Source: an uncultured Planctomycetaceae bacterium (GTDB lineage Bacteria; Planctomycetota; Planctomycetia; Planctomycetales; Planctomycetaceae). Taken from it: 64,000 nucleotides of DNA. Positions within the stretch are counted from its first letter, which is position 1, and every line of letters begins with the position of its first letter. The DNA is taken from contig CAWFAK010000009.1 of the NCBI GenBank assembly GCA_963813715.1, positions 288,001 through 352,000 of the forward strand, given 5' to 3'. The notes under the pieces were generated by a model. It was not told the origin of the DNA. It was given only the letters and a program-made list of their open reading frames with translations, and made no database searches. Of the stretch, positions 50,161-54,678 are shown piece by piece. A program made the translations under genes and the position numbers.

Positions 50161-51624
50161 TTACATCTTGTTCGAGCAACCCGGGGCCGGAGCCGGTTGG
50201 CACGTCTGGCAGCCCGGTCCGCAGGGAACCTGACGGCAGACGGTCCGGGGGACACAACGAGTCACCGTGTACTGCACTTGCCGCGGCACGCAGCGGCTGC
50301 AGGTCTTGTAGTGCGTCTCACAGACCTGGTGGCAGGTCGTGTAAGGAACCTTCTTCGTGCAGGTCTCCTGCGTGTAGGTGCAGGTGTGGTAGGGGACCAT
50401 CTTCGTGCAGGTCTCCTGGACCATGTGGCACGTCACGTAGGGGATCGTCTTCTGGCAGACTTCCTTGTGCCACGTGCAGCTCACGTAAGGAATCTGCTTC
50501 TGGACCGTGTAGTGCTGCCACGTGCAGCTCGTGTAGGGGACGGTCTTGTGGCAGACTTCCTGCGTGTACGTGCAGGTCGTGTAAGGAACGCGCTTCGTGC
50601 AGGTCTGCTGAGTGTAGGTGCAGACGGTGTAAGGCACCTTCTGGACCGACTGAACCGGAACTTGGCGGCAGACCGTGTACGGGCACTGCGAGTGCTTCAC
50701 TTCCATCTCGTAACGCGTGCAAGTCTGCTCTTGCTTCACGATCTTCGGCACCCAGACGCGGCGGCAGCACTGCGTGCCGGGGCACTGGACCTGGACCATG
50801 TGGCAAGCACCGGGCTGGTAACGGCAGCAGCAAGTGTTCGGATCGTAGCACCACGTGCCCGGATCACACTGGCACTGATTCATCACCGGGCCGGGAATGT
50901 TCTCGACCTGGTTCTGCCATTCGCCACAGTCGACGTCGACCATGTTCTTCTCGACGACCGGCTTGCACTCCGTGTAGGTCACGTCGCGGTAGCAGGTCTG
51001 TTGTTCGGTCTTCCACGTCGTCGTGCAGACGTCTTTGGTGCACGTCTCGTAGTGGGGCGTGCAGACGTTGTAGCAGACGTCGCGGTAGCAGGTCTGGTAG
51101 CAGGGCTTGCAGACCGTGTAGCAGACGTCCTTGTAACAGGTCTGGAAGCACGGCTTGCAGACCGGGACGCAGCACGTCTTGTAGCAGGTCTGGAAGCACG
51201 GCTTGCAGACGGTGAAGCAGCAGGTCTTGTAGCACGTCTGGAAGCAGGGCTTGCAGTACGTGTGGCAGACCGGCTTGTAGCACGTCTGGTGGTGGGGGAC
51301 ACAGACCGTGGAGCAGACGTCCTTCCAGCAGGTCTCCTGAACGTTGCGGGTGCAGGTGTACGGGATCTGCTCGCAAACGCGGTCATAGACCGTCTTGCAG
51401 CAGGTCTCGTTGTGCTGTTCCCAAACCGTCTCCTGCACCGTCTTCATGCAGACAGGGTCTGGGCAGCAGCAGCTCTTGGCGGCAGTGAAGTCGCCGGCCG
51501 GCGCACAACACGTCGGCGGGCAACAGCTATAGCTCTGCGTACCGCAGAGCCCCGCGTCGACGCTGTTGGCAAAGAGCGCTAGCGCCAGCGCGGCAAGCAT
51601 TGTTTCCAGGTGTGCGGTCTTCAT
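50161..51624 (-). CDS. Secreted Cys-rich 16-residue-repeat protein (YTV-like planctomycete envelope protein)
   Basis: Signal peptide ending VDA; about 76 Cys (hand count); repeats CKPCFQTCYKTCCFTV and CTYTQQTCTKRVPYTT; own terminator. Confidence 0.85.
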   Translation of the reverse strand: MKTAHLETMLAALALALFANSVDAGLCGTQSYSCCPPTCCAPAGDFTAAKSCCCPDPVCMKTVQETVWEQHNETCCKTVYDRVCEQIPYTCTRNVQETCWKDVCSTVCVPHHQTCYKPVCHTYCKPCFQTCYKTCCFTVCKPCFQTCYKTCCVPVCKPCFQTCYKDVCYTVCKPCYQTCYRDVCYNVCTPHYETCTKDVCTTTWKTEQQTCYRDVTYTECKPVVEKNMVDVDCGEWQNQVENIPGPVMNQCQCDPGTWCYDPNTCCCRYQPGACHMVQVQCPGTQCCRRVWVPKIVKQEQTCTRYEMEVKHSQCPYTVCRQVPVQSVQKVPYTVCTYTQQTCTKRVPYTTCTYTQEVCHKTVPYTSCTWQHYTVQKQIPYVSCTWHKEVCQKTIPYVTCHMVQETCTKMVPYHTCTYTQETCTKKVPYTTCHQVCETHYKTCSRCVPRQVQYTVTRCVPRTVCRQVPCGPGCQTCQPAPAPGCSNKM

Positions 51625-51973
51625 CGAACTTGCCCTCGTAAAAGCGATCCATGCGAACAGGGTCGGCGGGTTCACATACCGCCCGTCCCTCTTTACGTCG
51701 TCAACGCAGACCGGAGCCTTGAGTCACTCCACGCACTTCGCCGGGTCTGCCTGACCCTGTTCTTTTGTCTGGGGGACATAACCCCCAAGGGCGTTACAAC
51801 CGACATCCTCGACCGCGCGCGAACCACATGCGCCGTGTGCGACGGCCGGCCCTCGCGCCGTTCGACCGCGACCGCCGGGACGCTTACAATCGCCCGAGCG
51901 CCGCCGAACGGGCGCGCCACGCGTGCCGTCCGCACCGATTGCAACGAGCGATTCGCCCCCCGGGAGCCGACCG

Positions 51974-52799
51974 ATGAAGTTCGCCATCTGCCAGGAGTTG
52001 TTCGAGGACTGGGACTGGGATCGCCAGTGCCGCTTCATCGCGGAAGTCGGCTACACGGGGATCGAGGTCGCCCCCTTCACGTTCGCTCGACGGATCGAAG
52101 AGGTGACCCCCCAACGACGGCGCGAGCTGCGGCAACAGGCTGAGGCTCACGGCCTGTCGATCATCGGACTGCACTGGCTCCTCGCCAAAACTGAAGGGCT
52201 GCACCTGACTTCCGCCGACCCCGCGGTGCGGCGGGCGACGGCCGCCTATCTCGTCGAGCTGACGCACGCCTGCGCGGACCTGGGAGGCGAGCTCTTGGTC
52301 TTCGGCTCCCCCAAGCAACGGGACCTGGCTCCCGGGATGACATACGAGGAAGGCCTCGACCATGCCGCGGAGGTCTTCCGCGCCGCCCTTCCCGCACTCG
52401 CCGAACGTCGTGTGCGACTCTGCCTGGAGCCGCTGACCCCGAAGGAAACCAACTTCCTCAACACGTGCGCCCAAGCGCAGGCGCTGATCGACCGCATCGA
52501 CCACCCCAATCTGGTCCTGCACCAGGATGTGAAGGCGATGCGGCTGGCCGAATCGCAGCCGGTGCCCGCGTTGATCGCCGAGTACGCCGGCCGCGTCGGC
52601 CATTTTCACGCGAACGACACGAACCTGTTGGGTCCAGGAATGGGTGAAACGGACTTCGTGCCGATCTTCGCCGCGCTCTTGCGCGGCGTATTCGGGTTGG
52701 GTTTCGGTCGAGGTGTTCGACTACAGTCCGGGGTGCGAACGCATCGCGCGCGAAAGTTTTCGCGCGATGCAGGACGCGCTCACGCGCGCTTCGGCATGA
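51974..52799 (+). CDS. Sugar phosphate isomerase/epimerase (xylose-isomerase-like TIM barrel; frameshift near 52685)
   Basis: GYTGIEVAPF, FGSPKQR, LEPL...ETNF, HFHAND, shifted-frame WVSVEVFDY. Confidence 0.9.
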
Positions 52800-52817
52800 A
52801 GAAACGCCGCGCAGACG

Positions 52818-52861
52818 ATCGCGTCGAAAAAAAATCCGAAAATTTTTTCGATGCGATTTTT
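52818..52861 (+). terminator. Terminator-like hairpin
   Basis: ATCGCGTCGAAAAAA/TTTTTTCGATGCGAT 15-bp stem followed by T-run. Confidence 0.65.
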
Positions 52862-53125
52862 CGTCGCTGAGCGGCGCGATTCGCACATCGCGACGAGTGC
52901 GCAGCGCACGTGTAAAAAGCGCACAATCAACGAGCGCCAGCGACGCGCGCTACAAAAAAGCCTATTTTTCTCGATGAAAATGCGCGCTGCGCAACCTGCG
53001 CGCGCGGCGCAATGCGCTCACGGGCGATGACTTGCGTCGCGCGCGCTGCGCACGGCGCAAGCGGAGACCGCGCCACCGTCGTGACTTGTGACGATTCCTG
53101 CGCGCTCAAAGACGACGTAAATGGC

Positions 53126-53153
53126 TTGCAAGAATTTTTGAAATCCGTAGGAT
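53126..53153 (+). promoter_or_regulatory. Putative sigma70 promoter
   Basis: TTGCAA-N16(AT-rich)-TAGGAT in otherwise GC-rich DNA. Confidence 0.65.
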
Positions 53154-53159
53154 GACCGC

Positions 53160-53380
53160 ATTAGTTGCAGGTCCTAAGTGACCGGCGCGAATCGCGGAGA
53201 AGAAAAGTTGATGCAATCAACCGGACACTCAACGAGACGAGCCTTGGTCAACAGGAGTTGCAAACCGGCTTGTCACGGTTGACACGCCGGTGAGGAGTTC
53301 AGTTTCGTGACCACTTAACGCCGAATACTAGCCCGGTGTGCCAGCGGCGAGATTTGGTCACAGGTTTGGCTCTGTAAGGA
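53160..53380 (+). ncRNA. Candidate structured leader or small RNA
   Basis: Non-coding about 220 nt after promoter; hairpin 53264-53291; alternative GTGACC/GGTCAC and TAAGTG/CACTTA pairings. Confidence 0.35.
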
Positions 53381-53388
53381 GAATTACG

Positions 53389-53460
53389 GTGGCCAAGAAG
53401 AAAGCTGCGAAGAAGGGTGCAAAGAAGGCGAAGAAGGCAAAGAAGAAAGCCAAGAAGTAG
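53389..53460 (+). CDS. 23-aa Lys/Ala-rich microprotein MAKKKAAKKGAKKAKKAKKKAKK (histone H1-tail-like)
   Basis: AAGGAG RBS 7 nt before GTG, TAG stop, upstream promoter, downstream terminator. Confidence 0.8.
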   Translation: MAKKKAAKKGAKKAKKAKKKAKK

Positions 53461-53501
53461 CGCACGCTACTTGCCTGCCTGATTTTGCACGAATCGTGCA
53501 C

Positions 53502-53538
53502 GAAGCGGTCGAGTGAATTTCTCGGCCGCTTCTGCTTT
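53502..53538 (+). terminator. Terminator after microprotein
   Basis: GAAGCGGTCGAG/CTCGGCCGCTTC stem plus TGCTTT. Confidence 0.6.
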
Positions 53539-53648
53539 CGAACGACTCTCGCTTCAAGCGTTCGCGGATTCGTGTGCCGCATTTTCTCGACGGCAGCTCC
53601 CAGCGCAGTGCGCAAACCCACTCCCAAGCCAAACGGGAAGACGAAAGA

Positions 53649-54377
53649 TCAGTCGGCGCGGTGGGGGACTGGCTTGCCTTCGATCTCGCACAGAGCGTTG
53701 AGCGCGGCGCGTTGCTCCGCTTCTTTCTTGCTCGCGCCCCACGCGGCCGGATAGGTCTGAGGGCCGATGGCCGCGGAGATCTTGAAGCACTTGGAGTGGT
53801 CGGGCCCCTTTTCGTCGAGCACTTGATACAGCGGCGTCGCGCCGAATTGCTTCTGCGACATCTGCTGCAGCATGCTCTTATAGTTGCGGCTCAAGCGCGG
53901 CTCGATTTCCAGATCGAGCTCGGGAGCCATCGCCCGCTCGACGAACGCGCGGACCGCTTCGTGTCCGCCATCGAGATAAACGGCCGCCACGATCGACTCG
54001 AACACGCCCGCCAGAATCGACGACGGAATCTGGTGATGCGTGAGCAGCCCCTTGCCCAGGATCAGGTAATCCTGGAGGCCGATCTGCTCGGCGACGCGCG
54101 CGCACGTATTGCGGCTGACCAGCGACGACTTGATCCGCGTCAGCTCTCCCTCGGGATATTCGGGAAAGCGGAGGTAGAGGGCCTCGCAAATGATGCCGCC
54201 CAGAATGGCGTCACCCAAGAACTCGAGCCGTTCGTTCGACTCGATGCGGGTTCGCGCCACGGACGCATGCGTCAGCGCCAGCTCCAACATCGCCCGGTCG
54301 CGAAACTTATACTGAAGAGCCTCTTCGCAGAGTGTGAATTTCGACTCGGCGGTCAGCTCTTCAATCGGTCGCGACAT
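53649..54377 (-). CDS. rnc: Ribonuclease III
   Basis: ALTHAS, NERLEFLGDA signature, C-terminal dsRBD (NYKSMLQ...SKKEAEQRAA). Confidence 0.97.
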   Translation of the reverse strand: MSRPIEELTAESKFTLCEEALQYKFRDRAMLELALTHASVARTRIESNERLEFLGDAILGGIICEALYLRFPEYPEGELTRIKSSLVSRNTCARVAEQIGLQDYLILGKGLLTHHQIPSSILAGVFESIVAAVYLDGGHEAVRAFVERAMAPELDLEIEPRLSRNYKSMLQQMSQKQFGATPLYQVLDEKGPDHSKCFKISAAIGPQTYPAAWGASKKEAEQRAALNALCEIEGKPVPHRAD

Positions 54378-54678
54378 ACCGGCTCCTGCGTTTAAGTTAG
54401 GCCGCAAATCGGGCCGTGTCAATCGGCGGCCAATTCTCCTGGGACACGCAACTCCTTAATTCCTCTTAAGTTCCGGAAACAGGCCTAAAACATTTCTAGC
54501 ATCTCTTTCCAACATCTTGGCGGCGGCAACTCGTATAACAATTGAACGAAGCGACTGCATACAATTCGCCCACCAACGCGGTCGCAGCGAGTTTTTCGGT
54601 TTTACAGGCAGAGGTGCCTCCCCCAACCAAAAATGGGCCTGGGGTGCCTTCGACAATCAGCAAGCAGGAGGAACGTTC

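Follow-up and report, generated by a model that had tools for sequence, protein, structure and literature searches.

A covariation-supported leader RNA of Planctomycetaceae and the putative lysine/alanine-repeat polycation gene behind it

The subject of this analysis is a short transcription unit at positions 53126-53540 of the plus strand of a 64,000-nt stretch of DNA (the window) from an uncultured Planctomycetaceae bacterium (NCBI GenBank assembly GCA_963813715.1, contig CAWFAK010000009.1, positions 288,001 to 352,000 of the forward strand). Promoter-like boxes, a leader, a Shine-Dalgarno (SD) sequence, an open reading frame (ORF) and hairpins can all be read there from the sequence, and the ORF specifies the 23-residue peptide MAKKKAAKKGAKKAKKAKKKAKK, which contains 14 Lys, 7 Ala and 1 Gly, no Arg and no Asp or Glu (about 60% lysine). 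The last 145 nt or so of the leader, 53255-53400, are a structured RNA in which the helices P1-P3 covary. What is new here is a family-wide leader that is supported by covariation and tied to one target gene, together with a series of product lengths that extends down to 21 amino acids (aa). We read 53126-53540 as a monocistronic gene for a polycationic peptide of 23 residues.

An earlier reading of the same DNA from its letters (the sequence-only reading) had named a promoter, a long leader, an AAGGAG site, a GTG-initiated ORF and a terminator hairpin, and each of these elements is found where it had been placed. The leader is indeed present and long; what had been overlooked is that it forms the most conserved and most informative part of the unit, a covarying and family-specific RNA.

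Structure and distribution of the leader RNA

The structured leader is described by R1, a covariance model of 144 positions built from 14 sequences of 8 genera with compensatory changes. R1 matches the window with 142 bits and matches once in the host genome. The leader alignments used here were fitted to the structure of this model; 50 distinct sequences show pairing in 88.3% of cells, and both partners have changed in 21 of the 31 pairs. A covariation score of 0.301 was obtained, compared with at most 0.124 in controls in which the partners were slid, and none of 500 shuffles reached the observed values; shuffle controls overstate significance, kin being non-independent, and the slid-partner controls are the fairer comparison. 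The four helices are:

53266-53291, plus strand: hairpin P1, apex GUCA-YGGU-UGAC, double change in 7 of 9 pairs
53308-53313 with 53357-53362, plus strand: helix P2, double change in 4 of 6 pairs
53321-53324 (GCCG) with 53346-53349 (CGGC), plus strand: helix P3, double change in 4 of 4 pairs
53367-53396, plus strand: hairpin P4 at the ribosome-binding site (RBS), arms TTGGCTCTGTAA and TTACGGTGGCCAA, double change in 6 of 12 pairs

The loop of P3 holds two near-invariant segments, GCCCGGU (53332-53338) and GCCAG (53341-53345). In P4 the loop, GGAGAA, carries the SD sequence and the GTG start lies within the 3' arm; all 12 pairs are kept in 10/10 genus sequences, and 80% of cells pair across 50 sequences of the family. 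BLAST matches outside the genus extend over both the ORF and the 3' portion of the leader. The leader is probably regulatory. Two alternative pairings that might serve as a switch, GCCAG (53341-45) with the UUGGC of P4 and AGCC (53331-34) with GGCU, are possible, but neither has a double-change pair or beats the controls, and both were rejected.

When positions 52700-53800 were compared with Rfam at E <= 10, nothing was matched within 53150-53445; the nearest match, L20_leader, fell well below its gathering score (23 versus 58.7 bits) and sits on the end of the ORF and the terminator. Five orthologous loci compared at E <= 0.05 gave only a sub-threshold CsrC match on a repeat ORF, and no description of the leader RNA motif was found in open-access full text. 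A 'Rhodopirellula-1' motif is listed without an Rfam number by Weinberg 2010 (PMC2864571).

GGA motifs occur once in the P4 loop and frequently, though not universally, in the linker between P1 and P2 of the R1 alignment; counted by eye, the leader of approximately 229 nt holds five, which is roughly near chance. Binding by CsrA, a regulator of translation that recognizes GGA in the loops of hairpins, is no more than a lead; a leader bound by it would be expected to carry two or more GGA, one of them in a hairpin loop over the SD sequence. The host genome has an unusually large set of CsrA paralogs (PF02599; 12 matches, 11 of them over the curated cut-off), with copies, for example, at C9:282240-282389, just upstream of the window, at C9:409150-409305 and at C5:1103197-1103352; one copy lies some 750 nt from the HU gene at C5:1102159-1102452.

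The leader is widespread in the family and was confined to it in the class-wide sample. R1 was found in 112 of 151 sampled genomes of the family, which record titles identify as Planctomycetaceae, as one full-length match in 111 and as two in the remaining one, corresponding to 72/92 genera of the family and to 93 of the 119 genomes with a completeness of 90% or more. In the sample of the class it was found in 33 of 35 family genomes versus 0/115 genomes of 16 other families. Two of five R1-negative family genomes that were checked carry a diverged leader and a syntenic Lys/Ala (K/A) ORF, and 112 is therefore a lower bound. Matches to the leader or to sequence patterns include sequences labeled Gimesia, Schlesneria, Fuerstiella and Planctomycetaceae. 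Among the matches listed for a loose DNA pattern (GCGG ... SD ... GTGGCNAARAARAA) all phyla are represented; only 8 of the 80 loci retrieved were true R1, and the pattern is uninformative on distribution.

Behind complete R1 matches the ORF starts 12 nt before the end of the model in 34/34 and 18/18 loci of two sets, in which some loci are the same genome twice. The start codon is GTG in 32 and ATG in 2 of the larger set, and GTG in 17 and ATG in 1 of the smaller. These ORFs encode 21-107 aa, begin with AKK(K/A) and combine Lys with Ala, Thr, Val, Pro, Gly or Ser, and Asp and Glu are absent from all 34 complete ORFs of the larger set. Several genera have short forms, of 21-30 aa. Eight sequences with a leader in common and AAPKKK-type repeats, of which one is labeled Gimesia, measure 62-88 aa and vary from species to species. 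Since the orthologs behind the leader span 21-107 aa, the peptide in the window represents the short end of a repeat-length series. The 23-aa microprotein of the sequence-only reading thus holds up as a peptide ORF and gives way as a product of fixed size.

Several similar genes were seen in genomes labeled or placed beyond the family. A metagenome-assembled genome contig labeled 'Candidatus Kuenenia stuttgartiensis' (L112) has a full R1 match of 69.8 bits with a 23-aa K/A ORF; the label denotes an anammox bacterium of another order, so that either mislabeling or misbinning, or an occurrence of the element outside the family, would account for it. Elsewhere in the class, small Lys/Ala ORFs that follow strong GGAGG sites but are not preceded by the R1 leader occur in other families (L219, L220, L221, L222, L224). 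Among them, an identical 24-aa sequence, MAAKKKAAKKAVKKATKKAAKKKK, is present in two genera of one family (L221, G046:C9:127600-128900; L222, G051:C85:6400-7180), and a Lys/Ala ORF of about 75-80 aa is present twice in a genome from another family.

The reading frame and its transcription unit

Sixty relatives were searched at the DNA level. Of the 11 further genomes that represent the genus, 10 carry the unit in full, with 73-99% identity over query positions 1-434 or more; the remaining genome, which is 87% complete, gave no match. Within the alignment of 11 genus sequences, all indels in the ORF are multiples of three and the stop alternates among TAG, TAA and TGA at one column. Variable columns at codon positions 1, 2 and 3 number 3, 4 and 11, respectively, and of 25 codon columns 8 vary synonymously only and 4 change the residue. 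Across the 7.49-Mb genome, read in six frames, just eight open stretches reach a density of 8 or more Lys per 15 residues, that of MAKKKAAKKGAKKAKKAKKKAKK being one of them, which makes the ORF rarer than expected by chance. An in-frame extension to 40 aa from GTG 53338 was rejected as non-coding because the leaders of orthologs carry indels of 1 and 2 nt there. The frame evolves as coding sequence, as its in-frame indels, stop turnover and third-position variation indicate, and the ORF proposed by the sequence-only reading is genuine; an RBS and K/A ORF conserved in relatives, which that reading had named as its test, was found both in the genus and behind every complete leader copy examined. 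The unit is highly likely to be a real, expressed gene, and the ORF is very probably translated into the 23-aa peptide. Apparently unannotated, such a gene may be invisible to routine pipelines: its length falls short of what gene callers usually accept, and its low complexity blinds homology searches.

The remaining elements of the unit are:

53126-53131 and 53148-53153, plus strand: -35 box TTGCAA and -10 box TAGGAT with a 16-nt spacer, from sequence reading and conservation
about 53158-53162, plus strand: predicted transcription start
between the promoter-like boxes and GTG 53389, plus strand: untranslated leader, about 229 nt
53160-53254, plus strand: 5' leader domain, a long hairpin in which GTTGCAG (53164-53170) pairs with TTGCAA (53259-53264) in the genus consensus fold
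53255-53400, plus strand: structured leader (model R1), four family-conserved helices P1-P4, covariance-model match
53377-53382, plus strand: SD sequence AAGGAG, 7 nt 5' of GTG 53389
53389-53460, plus strand: ORF with GTG start and TAG stop (53458-53460), 23 aa
53455-53472, plus strand: hairpin AAGTAGCGCACGCTACTT of the 3' untranslated region (3'-UTR), overlapping the stop codon, from reading and fold
53486-53500, plus strand: 3'-UTR hairpin TGCACGAATCGTGCA, from reading and fold
53502-53532, plus strand: terminator-like hairpin GAAGCGGTCGAG/CTCGGCCGCTTC, 12-bp GC-rich stem, with the tail TGCTTTCG to 53540

The sequence-only reading had also proposed dedicated expression signals, and the unit appears to stand alone, with its own promoter-like boxes, leader, SD sequence, GTG and terminator-like hairpin. 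As a candidate sigma-70 promoter and intrinsic terminator, for which a spacing of 16-18 nt and a U tract behind a GC-rich hairpin would be expected, it has 16-nt spacing, a strong hairpin and a T-poor tail, and both elements are conserved. A consensus promoter scan did not flag the boxes, which match at 8 of 12 positions where the rule is 9/12, and a consensus terminator scan did not list the hairpin at 53502-53532, whose tail is poor in T; the standing of promoter and terminator is accordingly one of conservation and not of consensus. Both hexamers are invariant in 11/11 aligned genus sequences, save for an alternation of TTGCAA and TTGCAC, and in 6 of 7 sequences from other genera the corresponding columns hold TTGCA-type and TAnnAT boxes. 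The 40 nt around the SD sequence and start codon are invariant in the genus alignment. All 12 pairs of the terminator stem are kept in 10/10 genus sequences, in 5 of which one pair has gone from A-U to G-C by a double change. Sequence conservation of the 5' leader domain is confined to the genus, and at both 3'-UTR hairpin sites a second clade of the genus has other sequences capable of forming hairpins (by eye, uncounted). The single sequence 53150-53545 folds at -154 kcal/mol, compared with a shuffle mean of -126 (z = -5.5).

A transcript had been expected from the sequence-only reading, and the unit is carried by contigs of four RNA libraries (X1-X4), these being environmental runs from four studies that were available as assembled contigs. 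With 0 differences from the window, contigs cover 53178-53395 and 53366-53489 in X2; 53214-53395 and 53366-53509 in X3; and 53183-53290, 53261-53344 and 53366-53498 in X4. The interruptions at 53395 and 53366 arose in assembly, at the repeat. Outside approximately 53183-53509, X3 and X4 give no cover and X2 gives low cover from a relative, which is not usable for transcript ends or expression level. These contigs are consistent with transcription of the unit and are taken no further than that. The same libraries, from soil, rhizosphere and leaf litter, also contain contigs with SD-ATG-Lys/Ala ORFs of several other organisms, whose overlap with the window is limited to the AAGAAG repeat (loose ends 53395-53438).

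The unit lies in a recurrent setting. The next gene in the window is rnc (RNase III; 53649-54422), on the opposite strand and converging; the other neighbors are a TIM-barrel gene and the gene of an HtrA-like protease. Across 47 unique loci, for which the syntenic sequence spans only about 1.5 kb on each side, a convergent rnc follows downstream in 28 and a PF01261 TIM-barrel gene precedes in 43, so that the synteny near rnc for which the sequence-only reading suggested a search is real and the upstream gene is the more constant companion.

Four further observations concern the surroundings and the genome. In a sister genome 99% identical (L002, G002:C4 ~2154-2923) rnc is in two pieces, residues 1-108 and 109-257 with a 1-nt overlap, which points to a frameshift or an assembly error. 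Immediately 5' of the promoter, 52870-53110 is GC-rich, has long imperfect palindromes (GCGCGCTGCGCAACCTGCGCGCGCGGCGC...), is poorly conserved even within the genus and gave only meaningless microRNA-model matches on both strands. On the minus strand of the window, 50161-51675 encodes a 504-aa product in which Cys, Thr, Tyr, Lys and Gln are extremely abundant, with an N-terminal hydrophobic stretch and dozens of CxxVCKPCFQTCYK-type repeats; it resembles a cysteine-rich protein built of repeats and secreted. Outside the window, the same genome holds a second gene rich in Lys and Ala (C8:19989-20471, minus strand; about 160 aa), which is without an R1 leader; its product has an N-terminal MATKKKAKTTKASKKKGK... 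region, a middle rich in Pro, Ala and Lys, and an acidic end of seven Asp followed by FGSTERW.

Proposed function and rival explanations

The peptide would act by charge, binding and neutralizing a polyanion, most likely chromosomal DNA, and would help to compact or coat the nucleoid in the manner of a protamine, of chlamydial Hc2 or of the C-terminal H1 histone tail. The leader would gate the initiation of translation through a protein, a ligand or a condition; such gating is proposed because an excess of polycation would be harmful, and it would parallel the post-transcriptional control of HctA by the small RNA (sRNA) IhtA, here with the control element in cis. The whole of this proposal (a charge-driven, tail-only polycation, the short form of the 21-107-aa series, with translation gated by the leader) is one that we consider evenly poised, and for DNA or the nucleoid as the main target, suggested by composition, the balance falls slightly short of even. 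A more specific version appears unlikely: the leader would be a riboswitch-like or protein-binding sensor from which a growth, cell-cycle or stress signal frees the GTG, and a protamine-like burst would then compact the nucleoid, for which planctomycete swarmer or bud cells or starvation could be the setting. Together with the Lys/Ala micro-genes of other families of the class, it would hint at minimal chromatin proteins as a widespread, unannotated class with lineage-specific RNA gates.

Several findings weigh against the proposal of a gated, nucleoid-binding polycation. Composition cannot separate DNA from rRNA, polyphosphate (polyP) or other polyanions. The host genome has two HU genes, and a further nucleoid protein is therefore not required; the histone fold PF00808 was not found in this genome, whose completeness of 82.6% means that absence is not thereby shown. 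Three of the five R1-negative family genomes checked are without a K/A ORF at the syntenic site, so that the gene may be dispensable. As to the gate, P4 is supported across the family mainly by conservation of its sequence, 20% of its cells are unpaired, and the lower stem is lost in several genera; codons 1-3 constrain the same bases as the 3' arm; and the predicted probability that the start codon is unpaired has a median of 0.37 in 42 orthologs, a value that comes with no shuffled control. The RNA-library contigs permit no reading of strand, ends or level, DNA carry-over is possible in such libraries, and in X1 contigs of a close strain cover the unit and run into both flanks.

Searches for protein homologs point the same way. 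No family was matched by the 23-aa peptide at E <= 10 among Pfam and NCBIfam models, and the peptide and six orthologs gave no Pfam or NCBIfam match above cut-off. The only match among the six came from a 105-aa ortholog, with 27.7 bits to PF07382 (cut-off 40) and 22.8 bits to NF038052 (cut-off 135), and these matches to Hc2 models are sub-threshold and driven by composition. HMMER with a 60-aa ortholog returned 5505 candidates, none at E <= 0.001. Since neither HMMER nor the family models gave a homolog, 'H1-like' denotes composition and not homology. The linker histone H1/H5 winged-helix domain was not matched in Pfam by the peptide or the six orthologs, 23 aa being too short for such a globular domain, and the Arg-dominated composition of protamines is likewise absent, with 0 Arg versus 14 Lys. 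No model places the peptide in Hc2, Hc1 or H1, to which the histone-H1-tail-like label of the sequence-only reading had referred. No planctomycete H1-like or poly-lysine small protein was found described in open-access full text.

The same properties of charge and position might be explained by a polycation associated with the ribosome or another RNA, whose leader would be an autoregulatory mimic of its RNA site, although this seems unlikely. The sequence-only reading had raised the option. Tiny basic ribosomal proteins exist (eukaryotic eL41, of 25 aa; mycobacterial bS22 and bL37; Thermus bTHX), the size and charge of the peptide fit such a role, a conserved structured leader right before the start is the usual layout of ribosomal-protein autoregulation, and the unit was picked up in RNA-library assemblies. 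Ribosomal proteins, however, keep their length and sequence, whereas these orthologs range over 21-107 aa by gain and loss of repeats, and over 62-88 aa inside a single group of genus rank. Nothing matched a family or leader of ribosomal proteins, L20_leader being sub-threshold, and the locus lies outside any ribosomal operon; it is the varying length and the non-ribosomal context that disfavor a ribosomal protein. Quite improbable, too, is an organizer of some other polyanion or condensate, acting on polyphosphate granules, as a charge buffer or as a driver of phase separation. This explanation draws on the composition class of AlgP, an H1-like protein linked to the spacing of polyP granules and hence to a non-DNA target (PMC9239181), and on the AAPKKK-type repeats of the eight one-leader orthologs, the Gimesia-labeled one among them; no polyP genes are seen beside the unit, and the present results do not separate binding of polyP from binding of DNA.

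That the RNA itself might be the product, with an ORF that is incidental or regulatory (a leader peptide sensing lysyl-tRNA, or a dual-function sRNA), is very unlikely. The leader is conserved more strictly than the peptide, and a Lys-rich ORF accompanied by three hairpins resembles an attenuator, but there is no co-directional gene downstream for it to control. A leader-peptide attenuator is excluded because the downstream gene, rnc at 53649-54422, converges from the opposite strand, an arrangement shared by 28 of the 47 loci. The coding pattern also speaks against it, as does a Lys/Ala, acid-free composition kept over 21-107 aa in dozens of genera, and the host genome offers neither a second copy nor an antisense partner or long complementary target (E = 0.13 over 21 nt at best). 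Least credible, and scarcely so at all, is a chance low-complexity ORF, or a true gene on the other strand in the form of an 89-aa Phe/Ala-rich ORF (53358-53627). Lys/Ala repeats do keep several frames open on both strands, and look-ups in a protein collection yielded no product of the locus: 0 of 30 sequences (20 orthologous peptides, 5 longer-start versions and 5 antisense ORFs) were found exactly among 15 billion proteins, a result that had no positive control and is suggestive only. Against this stand the SD sequence and GTG at a fixed distance from a strand-specific RNA fold rich in G-U pairs, the stop turnover and third-position variation that fit the plus-strand frame, and the small number of comparably Lys-rich open stretches in the genome.

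The locus bears on the question of how planctomycetes compact their DNA. The nucleoid of Gemmata is highly condensed (PMC3440768), and a review of 2011 called the isolation of DNA-condensing factors from the Planctomycetes-Verrucomicrobia-Chlamydiae (PVC) bacteria 'an important step forward' (PMC3177640). A testable candidate is supplied here, in single copy and family-wide, with a peptide that is 60% lysine. The leader is useful in its own right, as a new and well-supported motif of structured RNA whose taxonomic range is defined and whose target gene is always the same, and it thereby offers a tractable system for learning what controls the production of a potentially toxic polycation. Should the peptide bind ribosomes or polyphosphate instead, it would still represent a new small-protein function.

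Comparison with known lysine/alanine-rich proteins and leaders

By composition, the peptide belongs with the bacterial histone H1-like proteins built of Lys/Ala repeats, namely Hc2, the tail of Hc1 and AlgP. Likeness to Hc2 (HctB) lies in the short repeats of nearly pure Lys and Ala (with Thr, Val or Pro), in the absence of a globular domain and in a shared place within the PVC superphylum. The number of repeats sets the length of Hc2 between strains and species (PMC2848022), as it does in the leader-linked ORFs. The Chlamydia protein has 165-237 aa, compared with 21-107 aa here and 23 aa in the window, and the planctomycete gene differs further in having its own conserved, structured 5' leader that matches no Rfam family. 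Hc2 is associated with DNA condensation and late developmental expression, whereas the planctomycete gene is known here from sequence and RNA contigs.

Hc1 (HctA) has a conserved, non-repetitive N-terminal part, which the planctomycete peptide lacks. The two are alike in that Hc1 is a small, basic DNA condenser under translational control by IhtA (PMC3469542, PMC4355289 and PMC8343073), and the start region of the planctomycete gene sits inside a conserved RNA structure. Control of HctA is nevertheless exerted in trans, by a base-pairing sRNA, whereas the planctomycete element is in cis, and a search of the genome found no complementary partner for it.

Repeats of the (A/S/T/P)KK type are typical of H1 tails, and the peptide shares with the C-terminal tail of H1 and with protamines the character of an acid-free, charge-dense polycation of low complexity. 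It is without the winged-helix domain of H1, protamines are rich in Arg, and there is no evidence of shared descent. AlgP of Pseudomonas aeruginosa, with its KPAA repeats, is another bacterial protein of Lys/Ala/Pro repeats and resembles the orthologs with AAPKKK repeats; it is much longer than the planctomycete peptide, the likeness is one of composition, and the polyP gene context is absent beside the planctomycete unit. The leader, finally, differs from the cis-regulatory leaders of ribosomal-protein and other genes in having no useful match in Rfam and in preceding a low-complexity polycation, while it is like them in being a covarying structure that lies directly 5' of the RBS of one gene and overlaps it.

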